Shown piece by piece: positions 2,430-14,781 of a stretch of 20,000 nucleotides of DNA. Source of the stretch: an uncultured virus (IMG/VR IMGVR_UViG_3300020050_005616) (lineage: Duplodnaviria > Heunggongvirae > Uroviricota > Caudoviricetes); the IMG/VR virus record IMGVR_UViG_3300020050_005616; one strand, given 5' to 3'. The position numbers were made by a program, and so were the translations under genes. A model generated the notes under the pieces. The model was given only the letters and a program-made list of their open reading frames with translations. It had not been told where the DNA came from and made no database searches. How positions within the stretch are numbered: position 1 is the first letter of the stretch; each line of letters opens with the position of its first letter.

Positions 2430-3074
2430 ATGGCTATACCATCAAGACAGATAGGTTGGAGTGCAGAAGATAATCTGTTGTGGCAAATCTCTAAGCAATT
2501 AGAACAACTTACTAACGTTACAAGTAACAGTAATGGAACTTCTGGTACAAGTGGTACAAGTGGAACCAGTGGAACAACTGGTACAAGTGGAACATCTGGT
2601 ACAAGTGGTTCTTCAGCATATAAATATAATTTTGGAGGAAGTTTAACTTTAACTGGTACGTTAACAACTACTAACTTACTAACAATAACAATACCAGCAA
2701 ATTCATTAACTGATTATTTGGATATTAGAAGTATAATGGTGCAACAATCTGGTACAGTTTTAGGGGGTATGACAGTAAGGGTATGGCATAATAGTGTTAA
2801 TAATTTTAACACAGCAACTAGAATAGCAAACTATGCTTTCGGTGGTGGCGGGGCTGATCTATTTGCGCAAATGACAAGAAAGTTTTCATTGCAATCTGGA
2901 TTATTGTTTGGTTTTCCTGCACAGGGTTCAAATATTGCTGGGGAAGGTTCAACTGCTAATGCGGCTTTATCAATACCTTTTGATCCAACGGCAATTAATT
3001 ATTTATTTGTATCTATACAATTAAACAATGTAACAGATACTGCAACATTAAGAAATGTAAATATAATAAATTAA
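2430..3074 (+). CDS. Putative virion fibre/decoration protein: shared N-terminal module, (Gly-Thr-Ser)n tract, beta-rich C-terminal domain
   Basis: N-terminus MAIPSRQIGW..NLLWQISKQLE is shared with ORFs 3078 and 5129; 9 Gly-X-Y triplets; C-terminal domain resembles that of ORF 7431. Confidence 0.6.
   Translation: MAIPSRQIGWSAEDNLLWQISKQLEQLTNVTSNSNGTSGTSGTSGTSGTTGTSGTSGTSGSSAYKYNFGGSLTLTGTLTTTNLLTITIPANSLTDYLDIRSIMVQQSGTVLGGMTVRVWHNSVNNFNTATRIANYAFGGGGADLFAQMTRKFSLQSGLLFGFPAQGSNIAGEGSTANAALSIPFDPTAINYLFVSIQLNNVTDTATLRNVNIIN
2535..2615 (+). repeat. 9-bp period coding repeat, 9 Gly-(Thr/Ser)-(Ser/Thr) triplets
   Basis: GTS GTS GTS GTS GTT GTS GTS GTS GSS. Confidence 0.9.
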
Positions 3075-3077
3075 ACT

Positions 3078-5114
3078 ATGTCAATACCTAGTAAACAGAT
3101 AGGGTGGGGAACAGAATCCAATCTCTTATGGCAGATTGCTAAACAGATACAATATTTAACACAAGTAACAGCATCATCTGCTAGTGCACCAAGTCCATTT
3201 CAATATAATGCAAACGGAACTGGCATAGAGCCAATTTTAGGAACTAATGATGCAAGTGGTACAAACGCTACAATAGGTGGTGGATGTGGTAATACTGCTT
3301 CTGGTACTATTTCAACAGTTGGTGGTGGTCTTTGTAATTTTGTAACTGATAATCAATCAACAATAGGTGGTGGTTATTGTAATATAGCTTGTGGTAATTA
3401 TGCAACAGTTGGTGGTGGTAGGCAAAATACTGCATCTGGTTCATTTTCTATAATCGGTGGGGGTGGTCAAAATATTATCAATATTACTGGCGATGCACCA
3501 GCTTTAATTAGTGGTGGTAGAGGAAATAAAATTTGTGGTTATGGACAAAGTGCTTCAATAGTTGGTGGCGAAAATAACTGCATAGTTGGTAATGGAAATT
3601 ATCAATCATTTATAGGTGGTGGTAATTGCAATCAAATAAATGGAAGTTATAATGGTAATAGAAATGCTATTGTAGGTGGTGGTTATAATTCAATATTAAA
3701 TGGTAGTTATAGTATAATTGGCGGAGGTAGATGCAATAATGTTTCTAATACCTATATAACCATAGGTGGCGGTTCTTTTAACACTGCTTCTGGTGGATGT
3801 TCAACAATAGGCGGTGGTAAATGTAATACTGCTTCTGGTTGTTATTCAACAGTTAGTGGTGGTCAATGTAATACTGCTTCTTATCGTTATACAACAGTTA
3901 GTGGTGGTAAAGGTAACACTGCTTCTGGTGGTTATTCATTTGTTGGAGGTGGTAGATATAATATTGCTTATTCTGGTTTTGGTGGTGCAACAGTTAGTGG
4001 TGGTTTTGGTAATTGCAGTTGCTCTGATTACTCTACAATTGGTGGAGGTAGTTTTAACTTAATTAATGATGTTGGTGCTTGTAGTTCAACAATATCTGGT
4101 GGTAGAGATAATATTATTGGAGGAAGTGCTGGTTGTGCCGTTATTGGTGGTGGTTGTAGAAATAAAGTTTATAGTAATGGTTCAACAATTGGCGGTGGTT
4201 TATATAATACTGCTTTTAGTTATTATTCAACAATTGGAGGTGGTTATTGTAATAAAATTTATTCTGGAGGGAATAGTGCATCTATTGTTGGTGGGAAGTG
4301 GAATCGCATATCAAACTCAATGAGTTATCCTCTTGCAAATGGTTCATTCATCGGTGGTGGTTATTGTAATAAAGTAGAAGCCAAGTATTCATTAATTGTT
4401 GGTGGAGGTTATAATGCACCTAGTAATGGTAATGGAATATATACTGGTGCTGACTTTTCAACAATAGTTGGTGGTAATGGAAATAAAGTTTATAGTAATG
4501 GTAAATTTTCTTTCATCGGTGGTGGTGGTGGAAATAACTATTTATATGGTAATAAAGTAAGTGGTTGCTATTCATCAATTGTAGGTGGTAGAAATAACAA
4601 TGCTTCTGGTAATTTTGCAATAATTGGAGGTGGTTTTTATAATGCTGCTTCTTATAGTTATTCAACAGTAGGAGGTGGTAAAAGAAATACTGCTTCTTGT
4701 GTTTATTCAACAGTTAGTGGTGGTTTTGGTAATACTGCTTCTGGTATAGGTTCAACAGTTAGTGGTGGCGGAGCGTATTATTATAATGGTGGTTTTTATA
4801 ATGCTGGTAATATTGCTTCTGGAAATAACTCCACAATTGGCGGTGGTTTATATAATATTGCTGCTAATCCTTATTCAACAATAGGTGGTGGACGTCAAAA
4901 CACTGCTTCTGGGTCTGCTTCTGGAATTTTAGGGGGAAAATATAACAACACAAACACTTATGATTGTGCAATGATAATTGGTAGTAATATTACTGCAAAT
5001 AGAGTTTGTGCAACATTTGTAAACAACTTATCTATTGTAAATATTCCAACTGCAAGTGCTGGTTTACCGAGTGGTTCAGTTTGGAAAAATGGAAATGTAT
5101 TAAATATAGTTTAA
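3078..5114 (+). CDS. Putative fibre/adhesin with Gly-rich ~14-aa beta-solenoid repeats (YadA-head-like)
   Basis: Shared N-terminal module; dozens of NxAxGxxSTIGGGxC-type repeats; C-terminal PTASAGLPSGSVWKNGNVLNIV tip motif of the kind seen in phage fibres. Confidence 0.7.
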   Translation: MSIPSKQIGWGTESNLLWQIAKQIQYLTQVTASSASAPSPFQYNANGTGIEPILGTNDASGTNATIGGGCGNTASGTISTVGGGLCNFVTDNQSTIGGGYCNIACGNYATVGGGRQNTASGSFSIIGGGGQNIINITGDAPALISGGRGNKICGYGQSASIVGGENNCIVGNGNYQSFIGGGNCNQINGSYNGNRNAIVGGGYNSILNGSYSIIGGGRCNNVSNTYITIGGGSFNTASGGCSTIGGGKCNTASGCYSTVSGGQCNTASYRYTTVSGGKGNTASGGYSFVGGGRYNIAYSGFGGATVSGGFGNCSCSDYSTIGGGSFNLINDVGACSSTISGGRDNIIGGSAGCAVIGGGCRNKVYSNGSTIGGGLYNTAFSYYSTIGGGYCNKIYSGGNSASIVGGKWNRISNSMSYPLANGSFIGGGYCNKVEAKYSLIVGGGYNAPSNGNGIYTGADFSTIVGGNGNKVYSNGKFSFIGGGGGNNYLYGNKVSGCYSSIVGGRNNNASGNFAIIGGGFYNAASYSYSTVGGGKRNTASCVYSTVSGGFGNTASGIGSTVSGGGAYYYNGGFYNAGNIASGNNSTIGGGLYNIAANPYSTIGGGRQNTASGSASGILGGKYNNTNTYDCAMIIGSNITANRVCATFVNNLSIVNIPTASAGLPSGSVWKNGNVLNIV

Positions 5115-5128
5115 TAAAATAAAAAATC

Positions 5129-5275
5129 ATGGCAATACCTAGTAGACAAATTGGATGGAGTACACAAAGTAATCTCCTATGGCAAATATCTAAACAATTA
5201 GAATATCTGACATGTGTAACTGCTGGTGGATGTAATACAACTACGACTACCACCACAACAGTTCCTGTTCTTTAA
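5129..5275 (+). CDS. 48-aa mini-protein: shared N-terminal module plus poly-Thr tail (not in ORF track)
   Basis: MAIPSRQIGWSTQSNLLWQISKQLEYLTCVTAGGCNTTTTTTTTVPVL; clear paralog of the N-termini of ORFs 2430 and 3078; A-rich leader. Confidence 0.9.
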   Translation: MAIPSRQIGWSTQSNLLWQISKQLEYLTCVTAGGCNTTTTTTTTVPVL

Positions 5276-5303: not shown

Positions 5304-6320
5304 ATGAAAGATTTAAAATTTATCCAGGCTTGTCCTAGCGATATTTATTACACATGGCAAGTTAACCTTTGGTTAGAGAGCTTAAAAGAGATAGGACATA
5401 GCGATAAAGCTATATCAGTTATCTTCACTCCTAAAGGGAGAGAGAATAAAGACAAGTGGAAACAGATAGAAGAGTTATATCCAGAGGCTGAGTTTCATTA
5501 CTACGAAGATGAAGATAATTTAAATCGATTGTTAGGAGTTTATATTCCTGTACTAAGACCATATGTTCTTTGGAAACATTTCAAAGCACATCCAGAACTA
5601 AGTGAGAAAGCAATTTTCTATTGTGACTCTGACATTCTTTTTATGAAGGATTTCAATTTAGAACAATTCTTAGAAGATGATATTAACTATCTATCTGATA
5701 CAAACAGCTATATTAATGCTAAGTATTTTGATAGTAAAATAGGTCAAGTGTTACCAGAGAAGCTAGAAGAATACAAGAATAGAGATATTCTTGGAGAGAT
5801 TGCAAGTGTTGTAGGAATAAACAGAGAAATATGTGAAGCTAATAATGATCATTCAGGAGGAGCTCAATATCTATTAAAGAATGTAGATGGTGATTTCTGG
5901 AGTAAGGTGATGAATGATTGTATTCTTATAAGAAGCTATTTACAAACAGTGAATAGAGAATTCTTTAAAGATGAAAATGCTGGATACCAAAGCTGGTGTG
6001 CAGATATGTGGGCTGTCTTATGGAACATATGGTTGAGAGACCAAGAAACTAAAGTGGTTCCAGAATTAAATTTTGCTTGGGCAACTGATCCAATATCTAA
6101 ACTTGATACACATACAATCTTTCATAATGCAGGAATAGTTTCTGAAACAGGAAATGGTTACCCAGCCTTTTATAAAGGTAAATATCACATGGGAACTGAT
6201 CCAACAAAAGACACTAGTCTAGATGTTGTTATTAATGATGAGAATTCAAAAAAATATTGCACATGGTTCTATGCAACTAAATTAAATGAACTAAAACAAA
6301 AATATAACCTAAACTATTAA
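5304..6320 (+). CDS. GT-A glycosyltransferase resembling peptide O-glycosyltransferases (HPAT/GT95, SERGT/GT96-like)
   Basis: DXD motif in IFYCDSDILF; YYTWQV, YIPVLRPYVLW and SWCADMWA segments parallel recalled HPAT/SERGT motifs; C-terminal IFHN. Start moved from 5226 to ATG 5304. Confidence 0.7.
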   Translation: MKDLKFIQACPSDIYYTWQVNLWLESLKEIGHSDKAISVIFTPKGRENKDKWKQIEELYPEAEFHYYEDEDNLNRLLGVYIPVLRPYVLWKHFKAHPELSEKAIFYCDSDILFMKDFNLEQFLEDDINYLSDTNSYINAKYFDSKIGQVLPEKLEEYKNRDILGEIASVVGINREICEANNDHSGGAQYLLKNVDGDFWSKVMNDCILIRSYLQTVNREFFKDENAGYQSWCADMWAVLWNIWLRDQETKVVPELNFAWATDPISKLDTHTIFHNAGIVSETGNGYPAFYKGKYHMGTDPTKDTSLDVVINDENSKKYCTWFYATKLNELKQKYNLNY

Positions 6321-6336
6321 CCCTTAATTTAAACAA

Positions 6337-6522
6337 ATGGGAAGCATTAATTCAAGACCTTTAAAGGCTTTCGTTAGATTCGATGGATCTGGCAGAATAG
6401 TTGCAGGAAGCTTAATCCTTAGAAAAAATAAGCCAAAAGTGGGCAAGTGGAAAGAAATCTCAGCATACGAATGCTGTAATTACATTCCTACCACTACATC
6501 TACAACAACATCACCAACATAA
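6337..6522 (+). CDS. Small protein with CC motif and poly-Thr tail (paralog 1)
   Basis: LKAFVRFDGSGR...PKVGKWKEI..ECCNYIPTTTSTTTSPT. Confidence 0.85.
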   Translation: MGSINSRPLKAFVRFDGSGRIVAGSLILRKNKPKVGKWKEISAYECCNYIPTTTSTTTSPT

Positions 6523-6524
6523 TC

Positions 6525-6710
6525 ATGGCTAGAAATAATAATAATAAGCTTAAAGCTTTTGTACGTTTTGATGGTTCAGGACGTGTAGTATCAAGTAGTT
6601 TAATTGTACAAGCATTTAAACCGAAGGTTGGTAATTGGAAAGAGATAGATGCTAAGGAGTGTTGTAATTATGTTCCAACAACAACCACAACAACCACTGG
6701 TCCAACATAA
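6525..6710 (+). CDS. Small protein with CC motif and poly-Thr tail (paralog 2)
   Basis: LKAFVRFDGSGR...PKVGNWKEI..ECCNYVPTTTTTTTGPT; same length (61 aa) as paralog 1. Confidence 0.85.
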   Translation: MARNNNNKLKAFVRFDGSGRVVSSSLIVQAFKPKVGNWKEIDAKECCNYVPTTTTTTTGPT

Positions 6711-7430: not shown

Positions 7431-8582
7431 ATGCCAACATTTATAAAACCAGGATTCTGGAAAGAAACATGCAATCCTTGTAATGGTTACAAAGGATGGC
7501 TAAATCTTGATCAATTCTCTAGTCAATCGGGAACAAATGGAACAAGTGGAACTTCAGGACTTAATGGAGATAGATATCAAACTACATCTACAACAACTTT
7601 TGAATTAGGAGTGAGTACAACTCTTACAGTTGGTACAGGATTAGCTTATTCAGTGGCACAAGATGTCATTATATCATATAATTCTACTAATCATCAAGTA
7701 AGTGAAGTAGTGAGTTATAATCCTTTAACAGGTGTTTTAGTAATTGGGCCTCCTACTGTTGTAACTGGATCAGGTACATATAGTGTATGGGGAGTAAATC
7801 TAAATGGTGCAGCTGGAGGAAATGGTACAAATGGAACTTCTGGTACAACTGGTACATCAGGTAGCTCTGGAACTAGTGGAACAACTGGTACTTCTGGAAC
7901 AACTGGTACTTCTGGGACTAGTGGGACTAGTGGAACATCAGGAAGTACAGGAACTAGTGGAACAGCTGGGTCTAGTGGGTCTAGTGGTTCATCAGGTACT
8001 TCTGGAACAAGCGGAACATCTGGTACAAGTGGAACTAGTGGATCTTCAGGAGTGAGTAATGCTACAGCATCTTACGGTTTATTTGCTCAAACAGCTGATT
8101 CAACCCCTGTAACTAACACTGCAGTAGAAACAACAATAATAGGACCAGGAGTTGGTACATTAACTGTTCCTGCAAATGCATTTTCTATTGGAGATTCTTT
8201 TACATGTTCGTTAGATGGTATACTTTCTTGTACGAGTTCCTCTACAGTGCATATTAGAATAAAAACAGGAGCTGGTGTACTTCTTGCAGATACTGGAATA
8301 ATTGATTTAGCTGCAGCAACTAATAAAGCTTGGATAATAAATTTATACTTTACAATTAGAACATTAGGAGCAACTACTGTTGCATCTGTTTCATCTGGAG
8401 GATTATTTTCTTATATTAGAAATGGAGGAACACAATTTGAAGGTTATAATTTAAGTACAGTTAATAGCACTACATTTAATACCACTGTAAGCAACACGCT
8501 TGTAATCACCGCTCAATGGGATACAGCTACTATAGATAATTCAATAACATCAAGAAACTTTACATTAACAAAAGTTTATTAA
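7431..8582 (+). CDS. Collagen-like (Gly-Thr-Ser)n fibre protein with beta-rich domains
   Basis: Short and long Gly-X-Y tracts, Thr/Ser-rich throughout; C-terminal domain with TLTVPAN and FNTTVSNTLVITAQW. Confidence 0.7.
   Translation: MPTFIKPGFWKETCNPCNGYKGWLNLDQFSSQSGTNGTSGTSGLNGDRYQTTSTTTFELGVSTTLTVGTGLAYSVAQDVIISYNSTNHQVSEVVSYNPLTGVLVIGPPTVVTGSGTYSVWGVNLNGAAGGNGTNGTSGTTGTSGSSGTSGTTGTSGTTGTSGTSGTSGTSGSTGTSGTAGSSGSSGSSGTSGTSGTSGTSGTSGSSGVSNATASYGLFAQTADSTPVTNTAVETTIIGPGVGTLTVPANAFSIGDSFTCSLDGILSCTSSSTVHIRIKTGAGVLLADTGIIDLAAATNKAWIINLYFTIRTLGATTVASVSSGGLFSYIRNGGTQFEGYNLSTVNSTTFNTTVSNTLVITAQWDTATIDNSITSRNFTLTKVY
7806..8057 (+). repeat. 28 uninterrupted Gly-X-Y triplets, X/Y mostly Thr/Ser
   Basis: GAA GGN GTN GTS GTT ... 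GSS GVS; synonymous codons vary between units. Confidence 0.9.
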
Positions 8583-8941: not shown

Positions 8942-9145
8942 ATGGGAATATACGAACCAAAGAATAGAATAGATGTTACAACACCCAAGGGAGATGGGAT
9001 AATTCTTTTTGTGACTGATTATGGTCATGAGACAGACACCATCTATACAATTATTATTAATACCACAGGTGAGATGTGGCAATACACTCACAAAGATATA
9101 ATCGTTAAACCTAATATAACATTTAAACGCTATGGCAAAGATTAA
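8942..9145 (+). CDS. Hypothetical protein
   Basis: 67 aa, beta-rich, overlaps the next start. Confidence 0.7.
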   Translation: MGIYEPKNRIDVTTPKGDGIILFVTDYGHETDTIYTIIINTTGEMWQYTHKDIIVKPNITFKRYGKD

Positions 9146-9554
9146 AAAAGCACAATCTGGTACTAACTTACCAGAAGCATTGAAAGCAAAAGGTACACCT
9201 AGTATTAAAAATTCTGGGTATAAGCCTTCTACTTCTGAAGAAATTTCAAAAGTTAAGAAGTATACACCACCAAGTGAAAATAGTATTAAAAATTCTGGAT
9301 ACAAACCTTCTACAAAAGAAGAGATATCAAAAATTAAAAAATGGTCACCTCCTAAAAAGAAAAATGGTGGGTCTTTATCTGGACTTAAAGCATCAACAAA
9401 AAGAGTTGGTCCTGTAGATCCTAAAGGAGCATTCACAAAGGTTCAAGAAAGAACATTAGCTGGTGCTAAAGGTAAAGCTAAGCTTGTGAAAGACAAACAA
9501 CTTGGTGCTACAAAGATGACAGCTAAAGCTGGAAAGAAAATCTCTAAGAAATAA
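9132..9554 (+). CDS. Lys-rich basic protein with KKAQxG/KxGG motifs
   Basis: KKAQSG, KKNGG; internal 27-aa duplication. Confidence 0.75.
   Translation: MAKIKKAQSGTNLPEALKAKGTPSIKNSGYKPSTSEEISKVKKYTPPSENSIKNSGYKPSTKEEISKIKKWSPPKKKNGGSLSGLKASTKRVGPVDPKGAFTKVQERTLAGAKGKAKLVKDKQLGATKMTAKAGKKISKK
9201..9353 (+). repeat. Imperfect tandem duplication, 81-bp period
   Basis: SIKNSGYKPSTSEEISKVKKYTPP (from 9201) vs SIKNSGYKPSTKEEISKIKKWSPP (from 9282). Confidence 0.9.
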
Positions 9555-10207
9555 TGGCTACTATTAAGAAAGCTCAACTTGGCTCTTTAATTAAAAAAGG
9601 AGTTAAGGCTGCAACTTCAGCTAACAAGGTTGTTATTCCTCCTAAATTAAAACTTTCTATAAAAAAATCTCAAAGTGCTCCTACAAAATTAAAAAATGTT
9701 GGTGCATCAGAAGCTGAAAAAATAGCTCATGGGAAGAAAACACATATGCAAGAGCAACCATATGACAATCCTGATTACGATAAACCTACATTTTTAGAGC
9801 GTGAAGTTAAAAAAACTAAACCTAAAAAAACAACTGATAAGTATGGTTTTGATCTTCGTCCTGATAGAAATGGTGGTATGCATAAAGCTCAAACTGGTAC
9901 TACCCTTGAGCAAAAACAATTTAATAGTCCTGCAGCAGTAAAAATGCGTAAAACTATTAGTAAACAAAAAGCTTCATTGAAAAAAAGAGCTTGGTCTGAT
10001 TCTAGTTTAGAACCAAATAAAAAGAAAATGAAAAATGGTGGGTCTATAGCTAAAGATGGCAAATGGATGCAGAAAGTTTCAGCTTCTATTAAGAAGCGTG
10101 GCACTGCTGGTAAATGTACACCAATAACTAAACCTGGTTGTACTGGTAAGGCTAAAGCTCTTGCTAAAACTTTCAAGAAGATTGCTAAATCTAATAAAAA
10201 GAAATAA
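9554..10207 (+). CDS. Lys-rich basic protein with KAQxG/KxGG motifs
   Basis: KKAQLG, RNGGMHKAQTG, MKNGGSIAKDG; TAATG coupling. Confidence 0.75.
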   Translation: MATIKKAQLGSLIKKGVKAATSANKVVIPPKLKLSIKKSQSAPTKLKNVGASEAEKIAHGKKTHMQEQPYDNPDYDKPTFLEREVKKTKPKKTTDKYGFDLRPDRNGGMHKAQTGTTLEQKQFNSPAAVKMRKTISKQKASLKKRAWSDSSLEPNKKKMKNGGSIAKDGKWMQKVSASIKKRGTAGKCTPITKPGCTGKAKALAKTFKKIAKSNKKK

Positions 10208-10695
10208 TGTCTAAGTTAAATCCACAGAACGCTACAGCTTATGTAGGCCCTGGTGTATTACGTAAAGGTGGTAAGATAACACCTGTTCCAAATGGTCCTC
10301 TTATTAAGAAGAAAGGCCCATTTAAAGGAAGCACATTGAAAGCTGGTGGTAAGGTTAAGAAGGCTCAGAATGGAGAATCTTTTACTAAAGATGATAAAGG
10401 TTATACTTATACTAAACAAGTAACTAAACCTGAAGGTAAAAGAACTTATCAAGGTAAATCTATTGATCAAGCAACAGCTATGAAAATAGCTAATTTTAAA
10501 TCAAGAGTTACACCAAGTGATTCTTTAAAAACAGTAAAACCTGTAGTAAAAAAGAATGGGGGATTGATTAAACGTGCTGATGGTTCTACATCACAACGTG
10601 GATTATGGGATAACATAAGAGCTAATAAAGGATCTGGAAAGAAACCTACAGCTGAGATGTTAAAACAAGAACGTAAAATTAAAGCTAAGAAATAA
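10207..10695 (+). CDS. Lys-rich basic protein with KAQxG/KxGG motifs
   Basis: RKGG, KAGGKVKKAQNG, KKNGG; C-terminal GLWDNIRA..GSGKKPT module. Confidence 0.75.
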   Translation: MSKLNPQNATAYVGPGVLRKGGKITPVPNGPLIKKKGPFKGSTLKAGGKVKKAQNGESFTKDDKGYTYTKQVTKPEGKRTYQGKSIDQATAMKIANFKSRVTPSDSLKTVKPVVKKNGGLIKRADGSTSQRGLWDNIRANKGSGKKPTAEMLKQERKIKAKK

Positions 10696-10964
10696 TGGCA
10701 ACAGCAGCATGGACTAGAAAAGAAGGAAAGAATCCTTCTGGTGGTCTTAATAAAAAAGGTGTAGCTTCTTACAGAGCTGCTAATCCTGGTAGTAAGTTAA
10801 AAATGGCTGTAACTACTAAACCTTCTAAACTTAAACCTGGAAGTAAATCAGCTAATAGAAGAAAATCATTTTGTGCTAGAATGGGTGGTGTAAAAGGACC
10901 TATGAAGAAACCAAGTGGTAAACCTACAAGAAAAGCATTAGCTTTAAAAAAATGGAATTGTTAA
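10695..10964 (+). CDS. DUF6321-like basic phage protein
   Basis: AWTRKEGKNPSGGLN.KG..SY...RRKSFCARMGG...WNC signature. Confidence 0.7.
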   Translation: MATAAWTRKEGKNPSGGLNKKGVASYRAANPGSKLKMAVTTKPSKLKPGSKSANRRKSFCARMGGVKGPMKKPSGKPTRKALALKKWNC

Positions 10965-10983
10965 TAATCTAAAAAATAAAATC

Positions 10984-11490
10984 ATGTTACAACCTAAAAA
11001 ACCTGTAGTTAAAACTACAACAAAACGTGTTGAATTTAAAAAAACTAAATTTGATAAAGATATAGAAAAAACTAATAAAGGTAATGCATCAGGTGTAAGA
11101 GCTAAAAATGGTAAATCGTTCCCTGATCTTAATAAAGATGGAAAGATTACTAAAGCAGACATCCTTAAAGGACGTGGTGTAATAGCTAAGAAAGGTGCTA
11201 CTATTAAGAAAGCACAAACTGGTTCTACTGTAAAACCTTATGAAAAAAGCGTTAAAACTTCAAAAGAAGTTGGTGTAAAGGGTAATGATTTACTTCGTGT
11301 TGATAGTGCAGGAAAAATTATAGAAAAAGCTATTACTCCACAACAAAAAATAGCTTTAAGATCAAAACAAACTAAAGACAGTACTAGTACAATGAATTCT
11401 AGAAATAGAATGGCTGAGAGTGCTAAAAGATTTGGAAGAGGTATGAAAACTGGTGGTGCTGTTAAAAAATGTAAGTATGGCTGCAAGTAA
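10984..11490 (+). CDS. Lys-rich basic protein with KAQxG/KxGG motifs and an EF-hand-like loop
   Basis: AKNG, DLNKDGKITKAD, KKGATIKKAQTG, MKTGG. Confidence 0.75.
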   Translation: MLQPKKPVVKTTTKRVEFKKTKFDKDIEKTNKGNASGVRAKNGKSFPDLNKDGKITKADILKGRGVIAKKGATIKKAQTGSTVKPYEKSVKTSKEVGVKGNDLLRVDSAGKIIEKAITPQQKIALRSKQTKDSTSTMNSRNRMAESAKRFGRGMKTGGAVKKCKYGCK

Positions 11491-11653
11491 ATCTATGACA
11501 GCTGGTAAAGCTAAGAAGAGTGGAGCACCAAGAATGGCTCCAAAGGTAGCTCCTCCTAAACCCATTAATGGAAATTATATGAAGGAAGCTGATGTTATTC
11601 GTAACAGAAAAAGTGCTCAGCAACCGATGAAAGCTAAAAGATTATCAAAATAA
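11477..11653 (+). CDS. Small basic protein (58 aa)
   Basis: ATG at 11477 (MAASKSMTAGK...) preferred over GTG 11453; ends at the terminator. Confidence 0.65.
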   Translation: MAASKSMTAGKAKKSGAPRMAPKVAPPKPINGNYMKEADVIRNRKSAQQPMKAKRLSK

Positions 11654-11654
11654 G

Positions 11655-11681
11655 AAAGCCCCTTGATGGGGCTTTTTTTTT
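11655..11681 (+). terminator. Intrinsic terminator between convergent blocks, probably bidirectional
   Basis: AAAGCCCC-TTGAT-GGGGCTTT followed by a T run; lies between the stops at 11653 (+) and 11680 (-). Confidence 0.9.
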
Positions 11682-12354
11682 ATTTTAAAGTTTTCATATT
11701 TTCTTTATTCATCTTAGACCACAATGCATCAGGAAATTTATTATCAATACTATCTAAGTAATACTTTTCTTCTTCAGGTAAGTTATTAAGATCTAAATAC
11801 CATGGTATGTGTCTACATGCAAAATCTCCACCTAATCTAACACTTTCATATCTATAACCTGCAGATTTTGCATCAAATGAGAATGTCATATCTGTAATTG
11901 CTCTATAAACATTTTCTTCTTCAGTTGGATACCAGCATACAGATTGATGATGTTCAATACTTTTTTTCATTTCACTCTCAGGAACATCATCTAATCTTAA
12001 AACAAGACTTGGTTTTCTATCATATTTTTTATAATATTCCATCATCATCTCTTGCCAGTTAGATGGCATATTAGGATTAAGTTCAAGATCAGCATCTGAA
12101 TAAACATAAAACTCTTCTTTACAGTTAGAAAAGTGTCCACTATAAAAAAATGTCCAAGGTCCTAAATTAGTTTTCTGTCTTATAATATTTACATCATTCT
12201 TTATCTCATCATACCACTCTAATAAAGGAGGATATGTAGAAGCATTATCTATTATGTTTATTTTAGCATCACCATTTAATCTAAACAGATCTTCTACCAT
12301 TTTTTTAGTAGTGGTAAGTCTATTCATATTAGTTAAATAAATTGGGTAGTTCAT
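11680..12354 (-). CDS. GT2-like glycosyltransferase
   Basis: IYLTNMNR...IIDNAST...NLG...YVYSDADL (DXD), typical GT-A/GT2 layout. Confidence 0.8.
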   Translation of the reverse strand: MNYPIYLTNMNRLTTTKKMVEDLFRLNGDAKINIIDNASTYPPLLEWYDEIKNDVNIIRQKTNLGPWTFFYSGHFSNCKEEFYVYSDADLELNPNMPSNWQEMMMEYYKKYDRKPSLVLRLDDVPESEMKKSIEHHQSVCWYPTEEENVYRAITDMTFSFDAKSAGYRYESVRLGGDFACRHIPWYLDLNNLPEEEKYYLDSIDNKFPDALWSKMNKENMKTLK

Positions 12355-13189: not shown

Positions 13190-14500
13190 TTATTTTCTAA
13201 ATAAAAATATTACATCATCATATCTTCCTTTTACATTTCTTAGATCTATTATTTCAAATGGGTATCCAAGTTCTTCAAAATGTTTTTTATCTGAATCAAT
13301 GTTCTGAATATCTTCTACTATTATCATTCCACCTTTTAATATATGAGGGTAAAACTTTTTTACAAATTCTAATTGATCTGGTAATGTATGAGATCCATCA
13401 TCTAAAGCTATTGTAATTTTCATATTATCTACCTCATCTGAAGTAATTTCATTTATGTCTTTTACAACATAATGAGTTCTTTTATTAAAGATGTTAGGTA
13501 TTGCACTATCTATTATGTCATATCCATAGATAATAGCTTTAGTAAAATAATCTCCCCATAAACGTAAACTTCCTCCTTCTCTAACACCCACTTCTAAGAA
13601 AACTATATCTTGATCTTTGTAAGATTTAAATAATTTTTCATAAGTTTCTAAATATGAATGAGCAGTATTTTTATCTGTTTGATAATATGAATAACCTTTA
13701 GAGTTAAATAAATCAACAAGGGTTCTTATTTTATATGGTTTTATATTTATAATTTTTCCATTAGATATATCATAAACATCATCTTTATGAAATAGCATTT
13801 TAATTTTTAGATCATTAACATCTAGTTTAGTATTTCTAGTTTCGCCTATACCACCTTTATGACTAATATCAAATGCAAACTTTTCACAAGGAACTGTTAT
13901 AGGTGGATTAAAATGAAAATAAGCATTGATGTAACTTTCATCATTTACTGCTGGTTCATAAGGAATTTTTTTATCTTCTATCTGCCACTCTCTAAGAGTT
14001 TTACAAAAATCTATAACTTTACCTCTCTTGCCACCAAAGAATGCACCATAATGATATGTACAAGGTAATTTAGTATCTGCTGGCACATATGCTTTAGATG
14101 CAGGGTTTCTATCAAAACCAGCTCCATTAGCTAACCAATCTCTATTGCCATAATGTTCTCCACCTACTAAATCTCCAATAAACCATTCTTCAGTAAAATC
14201 TTTAGACACACTAGTATCTGCATCAAAGTAATATATATATTCACTATCACAATCTGCAAGATCTATCATATTTCTAAACTTATCATTTGTAGCATCTACC
14301 CAATTATCATGTTGAGCATAATAATATTCTACATTGATATCTTCTGGTAAATACTCTTTAGGATCTACATCAGAAAAGAAATAAAAAGTAATCTTCGCAT
14401 CACCTTTATAATGATGCGAAAACTTTTTTATAAAGTTTACACCTAACACAAAGTATGCGTTAGTTGCAAGAATTACAATACCTACTTTTTTTTGTTCCAT
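13190..14500 (-). CDS. GT6 (ABO/alpha-1,3-Gal(NAc)-transferase family) fused to a class I SAM methyltransferase
   Basis: GT6: VGIVILATNAY, YFDAD, FDRNPASKAYVP, YGAFFGG, NDESYINAY. MTase: TDK..HSY...Y, FLEVGVREGGSL..W, GYDI, DDGSH, GGMIIVED. Start at ATG 14500 (TAATG overlap). Confidence 0.85.
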   Translation of the reverse strand: MEQKKVGIVILATNAYFVLGVNFIKKFSHHYKGDAKITFYFFSDVDPKEYLPEDINVEYYYAQHDNWVDATNDKFRNMIDLADCDSEYIYYFDADTSVSKDFTEEWFIGDLVGGEHYGNRDWLANGAGFDRNPASKAYVPADTKLPCTYHYGAFFGGKRGKVIDFCKTLREWQIEDKKIPYEPAVNDESYINAYFHFNPPITVPCEKFAFDISHKGGIGETRNTKLDVNDLKIKMLFHKDDVYDISNGKIINIKPYKIRTLVDLFNSKGYSYYQTDKNTAHSYLETYEKLFKSYKDQDIVFLEVGVREGGSLRLWGDYFTKAIIYGYDIIDSAIPNIFNKRTHYVVKDINEITSDEVDNMKITIALDDGSHTLPDQLEFVKKFYPHILKGGMIIVEDIQNIDSDKKHFEELGYPFEIIDLRNVKGRYDDVIFLFRK

Positions 14501-14781
14501 TACCAAATTTGAATGATGTCAAATGGAGAAACTAACAATACAGTTTCATCATCTGATAAAGGAATTAATGGAGCTTTTGATAAAGCTGCTGGATCTACAA
14601 GAACATAATCACCCACCTTCACTTCCATATTGGCTGTACCAACAGTATGCACTTTAAGTTTGTTCATCTTCTTCAACATTTCTTTCTCTAAAGATTCTTT
14701 TGTATTCTCATCTACAATAAGTTTACTTTCTTCTTTCTTTGGTATCTCTAAGTAGATACGATTTCCTAATAATTTTGCCAT
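14500..14781 (-). CDS. groES: Divergent GroES/Cpn10-like co-chaperonin
   Basis: KLLGNRIYL...ESKLIV...VHTVG...EVKVGDYVLV...DII parallels GroES PL.DRV...V.AVG...VKVGD.V...DIL. Confidence 0.7.
   Translation of the reverse strand: MAKLLGNRIYLEIPKKEESKLIVDENTKESLEKEMLKKMNKLKVHTVGTANMEVKVGDYVLVDPAALSKAPLIPLSDDETVLLVSPFDIIQIW

Follow-up and report, generated by a model that had tools for sequence, protein, structure and literature searches.

An unnamed phage glycosyltransferase family coupled to poly-threonine tags, with a probable role in sugar-coating the virus particle

Then, could a phage mark its own proteins for glycosylation with a tag that can be recognised from the genes alone? Virion glycosylation was reportedly described by Freeman et al. 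in 2023 in Cell Host Microbe for the mycobacteriophages Che8, Corndog and Myrna. Glycosyltransferases encoded by mycobacteriophages attach sugars to capsid and tail-tube proteins of the phage itself, which thereby gains a glycan shield (PMC12363180, PMC11256854). Glycosyltransferases of the glycocin systems (SunS- or ThgS-like) O- or S-glycosylate ribosomal peptides (PMC12457901). In plants, the hydroxyproline O-arabinosyltransferases (HPATs) are Golgi type II membrane proteins whose family GT95 is related to GT96 (PMC8012813). A GT-A-like fold has been predicted for GT95 and a possibly novel fold for GT96 (bioRxiv 10.1101/2021.07.05.451183). Here, we analyse a gene at positions 5304..6320 on the plus strand of a 20,000-nucleotide stretch of DNA from an uncultured virus (IMG/VR record IMGVR_UViG_3300020050_005616), and this whole stretch is referred to as the window. 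A preliminary description of the DNA had presented the product, P0001, as a phage glycosyltransferase with motifs of plant HPATs and peptidyl-serine galactosyltransferases (SERGTs). The gene is coupled in the genome to genes for proteins that carry runs of threonine, hereafter poly-Thr tags. We consider P0001, with a probability of about 0.7, to be the initiating peptide O-glycosyltransferase for these tags, and the enzyme most likely sugar-coats the virus particle.

The gene and the four segments on which the comparison with the plant enzymes had been based are located as follows (aa, amino acids; nt, nucleotides; ORF, open reading frame).

5304..6320, plus strand: glycosyltransferase P0001, a 338-aa ORF to the stop codon, a soluble GT-A enzyme of the unnamed family phrog_4417
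nt 5346-5363, plus strand: segment YYTWQV, aa 15-20
nt 5541-5582, plus strand: segment YIPVLRPYVLWKHF, aa 80-93
nt 5616-5642, plus strand: segment FYCDSDILF, aa 105-113
nt 5991-6014, plus strand: segment SWCADMWA, aa 230-237

All four segments occur in the claimed order, and each of them is located on a conserved block of the family alignment, which comprises 136 members in four sub-groups. Therefore, they are not chance strings. Three further blocks, equally conserved and absent from the preliminary description, are GGAQY (aa 185-189, with G186 and Q188 conserved in 99% of the sequences), HNAG (aa 274-277, H274 in 100%) and FYKGKY (aa 289-294, K291 in 100%). Seven residues are invariant in the alignment, namely Y80, D108, D110, Y136, F257, H274 and K291. 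Conservation of at least 92% is found for W18 (93%), Y106 (96%), S131, G186, Q188, Q229, W231 (92%), M235 (93%), G277 and F289, and P86 reaches 90%; position 234 is D or E in almost every sequence. Translation is likely to begin at the ATG at 5304, because the homologs agree with it in start and length: the best 120 matches span the whole query (100%), most of them with a length of 337-340 aa. A GTG start at 5226 was rejected, since the longer frame overlaps the small ORF upstream and the homologs begin at the ATG. The protein lacks any hydrophobic segment (maximum KD19 0.68) and should therefore work in the cytoplasm; its first strand starts at residue 4.

P0001 has no Pfam match at E ≤ 10, no match in NCBIfam and no sequence match in the PDB. 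It matches phrog_4417, whose function is unknown, with an E value of 3.4e-55 (residues 4-321 against positions 1-287 of the 293 in the profile). The family is large, with 2,706 clusters at 90% identity among the candidates scored; at 50% identity, 775 representatives match at E ≤ 0.001, including 279 at E ≤ 1e-30. When the profile of 71 relatives was compared with the PDB sequences, a thioredoxin-like match was obtained at E 0.007, which was judged spurious.

The AlphaFold2 model of P0001, built from an alignment of 71 rows, has a GT-A fold, with a predicted local distance difference test score (pLDDT) of 96.8 and a predicted template modelling score (pTM) of 0.93. In a comparison of the model with 48,161 chains of solved structure by VIA-align, the top fold was LgtC (Z 14.2, root-mean-square deviation 3.6, 241 residues aligned), followed by glycogenin (Z 14.0), the Skp1 alpha-galactosyltransferase (13.9), UGGT (13.6), WbbM (13.2), GlyE (13.0), LARGE1 (12.2) and GT6 enzymes (11-12). 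A64R of PBCV-1, which glycosylates the capsid, matches at Z 11.0. Foldseek placed glycogenin first (E 2e-7, template modelling score (TM) 0.44-0.47), and the TM-scores over its matches were only 0.39-0.47. In BFVD, two true relatives were found, that is, a protein of an uncultured Caudovirales member (TM 0.81) and Orf49 of Lactobacillus phage LP65 (TM 0.73), both unannotated; the remaining matches there are GT8-like at TM 0.51 or below, which leaves a clear gap. Thus, the nearest solved folds belong to GT8, GT77, GT24 and GT6. The best two are GT8 chains, and in the P0001 family the residues D108, D110 and H274 are invariant, while the Pfam family Glyco_transf_8 (CAZy GT8) matches neither P0001 at E ≤ 10 nor any of the 71 relatives. 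We take the nearest solved folds to be all retaining enzymes; consequently, P0001 probably retains the anomeric configuration, and its product would be alpha-linked. The claim of a phage glycosyltransferase is supported by the GT-A fold, by the invariant DxD motif and by the surroundings of the gene, a stretch of phage DNA that encodes lysis and fibre proteins, RecA and MazG.

Only three of the 112 ORFs of the window (six frames, at least 35 aa) end in a poly-Thr C-terminus, and all three flank the transferase gene.

5129..5275, plus strand: 48-aa ORF, candidate acceptor, with the head MAIPSRQIGWS...LLWQISKQLE, then T8 and VPVL (end ...NTTTTTTTTVPVL)
6337..6522, plus strand: 61-aa ORF, candidate acceptor, with the head KAFVRFDGSGR...KPKVGKW.EI..ECC, then TTTSTTTSPT (end ...PTTTSTTTSPT)
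6525..6710, plus strand: 61-aa paralog of the ORF at 6337..6522, candidate acceptor, which ends TTTTTTTGPT (end ...PTTTTTTTGPT)

The same arrangement is conserved in related viruses. Eighty related viral loci were retrieved, of which 78 were counted (two have no complete enzyme ORF), with 7,020 ORFs. They contain 149 ORFs with a poly-Thr end, every one on the strand of the enzyme, and 138 of these lie no more than 1.5 kb from the enzyme, in a zone that holds 24% of the bases. At least one such ORF is present within 1.5 kb of the enzyme in 71 of the 78 loci. The poly-Thr-tailed ORFs fall into two classes by their heads. In the 61-aa class, a head of 47 residues with 21 invariant columns is followed by one to at least four copies of the unit T7-(V/A)AP, and the copy number differs between closely related phages (L004-L081), like a variable-number tandem repeat in mucins. 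In the relative L048, a member of the 61-aa family has an additional long (ST)n run. The second class has the head of the two large fibre-like proteins of the window, which suggests that this head could be a docking module. Apart from an occasional Pro or Ala spacer, the tracts next to the enzyme gene consist of Thr only. A complex prediction for the enzyme with its 61-aa neighbour scored 0.00 with an uncertain partner fold, and counts neither for nor against binding.

The coupling is also found in independent phage lineages. A tblastn search of P0001 against 50,697 phage records gave 77 matching records at E ≤ 1e-5 with 28-35% identity, mostly of Lactobacillus, Enterococcus, Staphylococcus and Lactococcus. 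In phiFL1A, 1706, R9.1, nattely and 4995_1, the homolog (28-34% identity) comes directly after major head or tail genes, named according to PHROGs, with poly-Thr ends. For example, gp51 of Enterococcus phage phiFL1A starts at the stop codon of the gene for the major tail protein, which ends ...NGTTTTTSTTTTTTSSTTTTTTTQASSK, and the major head protein of the same phage ends ...TTTTTKPTTTTTKPTTTTTTTQG. Both the tail protein and the protease-capsid fusion of Lactococcus phage 1706 end in T9-10HHD, and both the head and the tail protein of Lacticaseibacillus phage R9.1 end in T7-9SHV. The tag is on the capsid in Enterococcus phage 4995_1 and on the tail protein in phage nattely, and two tagged ORFs lie directly upstream of the homolog in Lactobacillus phage Iacchus. 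Runs of seven Thr codons (ACN x7) are present in the whole records of four out of five enzyme-bearing phages, while the reversed control pattern is present in none of the five.

The gain and loss of enzyme and tags could be followed with the tail-tube protein of phiFL1A, whose untagged part retrieved 27 viral loci, each covered for 6 kb on either side of the gene. The 12 loci with the enzyme are all tagged on both the tail-tube and the head protein, whereas none of the 15 loci without the enzyme is tagged. The tail-tube sequences run parallel up to ...PGETTGDY..I and diverge beyond. On the tail-tube tree, the enzyme and tag state changes at least four times, with at least two changes forced by well-supported branches, and only one of 500 label shuffles gave a number as low.

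In four Enterococcus phages, an unannotated gap of 200-310 nt separates the stop of the major capsid gene from the transferase homolog that follows it.

L085:8380-8675: capsid-stop gap region of nattely
L274:1540-1800: capsid-stop gap region of Planchet
L275:1570-1800: capsid-stop gap region of 9183
L276:1460-1800: capsid-stop gap region of vB_EfaS_140

In all four, the -1 frame at the capsid stop is open from about nine codons before the stop through a poly-Thr tract of 40-55 aa, with no start codon. The stop is preceded by C_CCA_AAA in Planchet and 9183, and the sequence there is GCA_AAG_TAA in nattely and 140. The homologous capsid of 4995_1 carries the poly-Thr tag in frame. Judging from the sequence, this region looks like a programmed -1 frameshift, which would give a minor tagged form of the capsid. 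Comparable frameshifted capsid forms are 10A/10B of T7 and gp5A/5B of Lactobacillus phage A2. A sequencing error as the cause of the out-of-frame poly-Thr in nattely was rejected, since the arrangement is kept in the three other isolates.

The enzyme occurs in bacterial genomes as well. Among 38 genome loci, the ten at the top resemble phages, and poly-Thr proteins adjoin the enzyme in six of these ten. The other 28 (L099-L126) are chromosomal and come from Sphingobacterium, Pedobacter, Chitinophaga, Mucilaginibacter, Elizabethkingia and relatives. Here the P0001-like domain forms the N-terminal half of proteins of 450-710 aa, often fused to a GT7C/GT2-type domain. Across 17 of the 38 loci there are 28 small ORFs with a Bacteroidota double-glycine leader, one to four per cluster; two leader peptides that were tested match TIGR04149 at 20-22.5 bits, under the cut-off of 25. 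The cores of these peptides open with a stretch rich in Ser/Thr and continue with a Cys-rich part, and genes for C39-ABC exporters, for VKOR-thioredoxin and LanC-like proteins and for additional transferases are found nearby. From their gene content, the chromosomal clusters look like a glycocin-type pathway for peptides that are made by ribosomes and modified after translation (RiPPs), a context that independently points to peptides as the acceptors. As for fusions, 15 of 50 long relatives are joined to GT6, GT2, GT7C, GT29, GT32-like, methyltransferase or radical-SAM domains. In other phages, the GT6-like and the methyltransferase domain are each fused directly to the P0001-like domain, while in the window both are part of a separate protein (13190-14506). 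By the Rosetta-stone argument, the three would act in one pathway. It should be noted that Chitinophaga sp. YR573 has two tandem paralogous transferase genes of 272 and 351 aa (L093:7057-9321); the end of a 94-aa ORF downstream resembles the head of the 61-aa proteins of the window (...KPKNGYWQEV..CC), and a 327-aa ORF upstream contains the tract STTTTSSTT.

How could such an enzyme work? P0001 would be a cytoplasmic, metal-dependent GT-A enzyme using a nucleotide sugar. If GT8 chemistry applies, D108-x-D110 and H274 would hold the metal and the nucleotide sugar and K291 the diphosphate, while Q188 and the acidic residue D/E234 would line the site of sugar and acceptor. An extended Thr tract would be bound there, and the first sugar would be put on the threonine hydroxyl, probably in alpha linkage. 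In this virus, the tags would be those on the small proteins encoded on either side of the gene, each with a short conserved head and 7-8 threonines, and the heads would probably dock the tagged proteins on the particle. Extension and capping of the glycan may be the task of the GT6-like/methyltransferase and GT2-like proteins of the window. Assembly of the tagged proteins on the particle would follow and give the virion a mucin-like sugar coat, from which the phage may benefit.

Some points weigh against P0001 acting on the poly-Thr tags. Its support is genomic and structural throughout, and the fold neighbours do not fix the acceptor, since the acceptors of LgtC and glycogenin are glycans or the enzyme itself. 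No poly-Thr-tailed ORF is present in six of the 78 related loci, and in a seventh the nearest is 1,570 bp away. Moreover, these loci belong to one lineage with 64-93% identity and are not independent, so that the counts show conservation and not independent events. Lactobacillus phage SAC12B (L086, W01; 136.6 kb) has the enzyme and no ACN x7 run anywhere. Eight of the 12 enzyme-positive tail-tube loci are nearly the same in sequence. Since the enzyme gene adjoins the 3' end of the tail-tube gene, where the tag is encoded, a single recombination could transfer the two together; the tag on the head gene, some 2 kb further upstream, speaks against such a transfer, although a larger block may have moved. 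As a separate observation on SAC12B, the gene upstream of its transferase homolog encodes an Ig-domain protein.

Alternatively, the poly-Thr tracts may be unmodified flexible linkers or spacers, with a transferase that acts on a small molecule or on itself and travels with them by linkage. Thr-rich linkers without glycosylation do exist, and glycogenin, one of the top fold matches, glycosylates itself; this explanation also gains from some relatives, such as L091, in which the tract joins the head to a C-terminal domain. However, many tags are terminal and have nothing to link, the co-occurrence of 12/12 versus 0/15 with at least four state changes would not be expected, and the four Enterococcus phages keep a start-less poly-Thr frame open just before the enzyme gene. 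Linkers are therefore an unlikely explanation. It is less likely still that the enzyme modifies a glycan of the host envelope (lipopolysaccharide, capsule or teichoic acid) to block superinfection or to change the serotype, the poly-Thr genes being unrelated neighbours. Many phage-encoded GT-A enzymes do modify host envelope glycans, and the nearest fold, LgtC, is a lipooligosaccharide galactosyltransferase. Against this, the enzyme is soluble and encoded in head and tail modules rather than lysogeny modules, its gains and losses coincide with those of the tags on structural proteins, and its carriers infect both Bacteroidota and Firmicutes, whose envelopes are unlike. Hardly any credit is due to the idea that P0001 glycosylates the bases of the phage DNA against restriction. 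Phage sugar transferases for DNA are well known (PMC12838424), and MazG and thioredoxin genes lie within the window. But no genes for hypermodified bases were found there, small temperate siphophages such as phiFL1A have the gene between tail genes, and both the poly-Thr coupling and the RiPP-like placement would be left unexplained.

The link with the plant enzymes needs to be divided into function and descent. That P0001 is a functional counterpart of HPAT or SGT1, arabinosylating hydroxyproline (Hyp) or galactosylating serine in Pro-rich extensin-like motifs, seems very improbable. Like both plant enzymes, it appears to act on peptides, and there are traces of the HPAT profile PF23452 around the family. 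However, no prolyl hydroxylase is found among 37 ORFs of the window, the adjoining tracts are pure Thr in which Pro or Ala spacers are occasional, and the protein, with the KD19 value given above, has no type II membrane anchor as in HPATs. From this context, the acceptor is likely to be Thr rather than Hyp or Ser-Pro. As regards descent, PF23452 does not match P0001 at E ≤ 10 and reaches the cut-off in none of about 146 family proteins scanned, and there is no match in 50 long relatives, in 21 homologs from phage and bacterial loci or in four further homologs. It is touched by two of the 71 relatives, P0155 and P0190, at E 0.012-0.013 and 15.3-15.4 bits (cut-off 23.9), over 45 residues only, which extend from the Y-x-x-x-x-R-P block to the DxD inclusive, and it is the sole Pfam family touched by more than one of the 71. 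In the ESM Atlas, which provides evidence of another kind, 22 of the 30 nearest named clusters carry PF23452 and six carry DUF7164; the best PF23452 clusters near P0001 are at 0.97 (on 10% of the members) and 0.96 (on 58% of the members). The profile is absent among the homologs listed for phiFL1A gp51 (120) and for P0190 (120). Searches of 401 Bacteroidota, 401 Acidobacteriota and 10 single genomes did not find it either, a result of little weight because 14 control genomes were equally silent. Since no relative with a solved structure came up in the PDB sequence searches, the ranking of GT8, GT77, GT24 and GT6 folds neither supports nor refutes the plant link. As for the plant-type assignment in the preliminary description, the peptide acceptor is favoured by the context, and the sub-threshold matches and the Atlas neighbours point weakly to some affinity. 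A distant kinship between the family and plant HPAT/SERGT is plausible, at roughly even odds.

The remainder of the window can now be surveyed. The window is phage DNA with 32% G+C. On the plus strand, there are a lysis region (XhlA-like and DUF5675), the genes with a shared head, the transferase, the two 61-aa paralogs, a collagen-like fibre and a lysine-rich run; on the minus strand, there are a GT2-like gene, a 277-aa gene, the GT6-like/methyltransferase fusion, thioredoxin, MazG and RecA.

2430..3074, plus strand: 214-aa fibre-like protein with the MAIPSRQIGWS head and a collagen-like GTS repeat
3078..5114, plus strand: 678-aa glycine-rich repeat protein with the MAIPSRQIGWS head and IGGG..N.AS units, no family match
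7431..8582, plus strand: 383-aa collagen-like tail-fibre protein with TTSTTT at aa 51-56, the only other T/S run of the window
11680..12354, minus strand: 224-aa GT2-like protein, a sub-threshold Pfam match (21.3 bits, cut-off 23.3)
13190..14506, minus strand: fusion of a GT6-like glycosyltransferase and a methyltransferase (Methyltransf_24), candidate enzyme for extension and capping of the glycan

The genes of 214, 678 and 48 aa are consecutive, and their products have a common head of about 30 residues, MAIPSRQIGWS..NLLWQISKQLE.LT (encoded at 2430-2520, 3078-3170 and 5129-5220), which may be a docking module for swappable distal parts. The 678-aa protein (3078-5114) consists almost entirely of about 40 short glycine-rich units ..IGGG..N.ASG..S., is cysteine-rich and has no match in Pfam or PHROG. 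Collagen-like Gly-Thr-Ser triplet repeats are present in the two fibre proteins at 2430-3074 and 7431-8582. The Thr of the collagen-like repeats in Bacillus BclA is O-glycosylated; therefore, the Gly-Thr-Ser repeats of the window could be further acceptors. At 9132-11653, there are six successive basic ORFs rich in lysine, alanine and glycine, several of them with KKAQ.G... and one with DUF6321, which may encode virion proteins that are located inside the particle or bind DNA. Neither PDB, Pfam, PHROG nor NCBIfam gave a match for the 277-aa ORF that separates the GT2-like from the GT6-like gene.

As for the host, the phage has no near relative in culture: megablast of the window against cultured phages matched only 730-918, with 77% identity over 189 bases, in seven Flavobacterium phage records. 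Among cultured phages, Chryseobacterium phage MA9V-3 gives the best match for the transferase (34.8%) and likewise for RecA (42.9%). The length of related contigs is about 110-118 kb, and the closest copies are found in genome bins labelled Saprospiraceae, Cytophagales and Sediminibacterium. From the match to MA9V-3 and the labels of these bins, we infer that the phage likely infects a Bacteroidota host.

A wider generalisation can be offered tentatively, and is in our opinion rather doubtful as a whole. One unnamed family would recognise bare poly-Thr on any protein, which would make the run a portable glyco-tag that coats capsids, tail tubes and decoration proteins in a mucin-like manner in phages of Bacteroidota and Firmicutes; the -1 frameshift at the capsid stop would control the dose in some Enterococcus phages; Bacteroidota would use the domain on ribosomal peptides; and the family would be a viral and bacterial sister, possibly the source, of plant GT95/GT96.

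If P0001 does glycosylate the tags, virion glycosylation would be widespread and predictable from sequence, and not peculiar to mycobacteriophages. The family occurs in phages of Enterococcus and Staphylococcus relevant to therapy, in dairy phages of Lactococcus and Lactobacillus and in abundant aquatic phages of Bacteroidota. A sugar coat would affect how antibodies recognise the particle, how stable it is, how it adheres to mucus or polysaccharide, and the range of hosts. An enzyme that is small and soluble, together with a genetically encodable tag of seven residues, would be a handy tool for site-directed O-glycosylation in bacteria. Furthermore, the P0001-like domain would be a new tailoring enzyme for RiPP discovery, and the family offers a testable prokaryotic or viral relative for the origin of extensin glycosylation in plants.

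How, then, does the locus compare with the known systems? A full-text literature search yielded no paper describing the P0001 family or poly-Thr tags in phages, and no mention of PF23452, DUF7164 or phrog_4417 was found in the literature searched. Phage virion glycosylation is known as a phenomenon; the enzyme family with its recognisable tag is new. P0001 may resemble GT8 enzymes in its metal site, with the DxD plus a downstream His. The GT8-type enzymes LgtC, glycogenin and GlyE (of the pneumococcal serine-rich-repeat pathway), the GT77 Skp1 enzyme and the GT24 enzyme UGGT are the best folds (Z 13-14.2 over 216-247 residues), and GlyE and the Skp1 enzyme likewise build O-glycans on proteins. 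P0001 differs from these in sequence (9-12% identity), in the lack of a Glyco_transf_8 match and in the low TM-scores. The glycocin systems are similar to the Bacteroidota clusters, where double-glycine-leader peptides accompany the P0001-like domain, as do a C39-ABC exporter and disulfide-forming genes; however, their transferases belong to another family, and Glycos_transf_2 gives no match in the homologous domain. The plant and algal HPAT1-3 (GT95, PF23452) and the peptidyl-serine alpha-galactosyltransferase SGT1 (GT96) are initiating peptide O-glycosyltransferases, as is proposed for P0001, and act on repetitive mucin- or extensin-like tracts, and HPAT shares with P0001 a weak local profile similarity before the DxD and close Atlas features. 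In contrast, the similarity to HPAT is below the Pfam threshold, the plant HPATs are anchored in the Golgi membrane while P0001 is soluble, and the acceptors are Hyp or Ser in the plant enzymes and predicted to be Thr for P0001. With the mycobacteriophage system, finally, the P0001 family has in common a phage-encoded transferase whose likely targets are proteins of the phage itself; the genes of several carriers have the coding capacity for tags on head and tail proteins. None of the 77 matching records in the tblastn search is a Mycobacterium phage, and no homology to Che8 gp110 or Corndog gp38 was seen there. The phage system presented here is distinguished by another enzyme family, by recognisable and portable poly-Thr tags, and by an enzyme gene that usually abuts the tagged gene.

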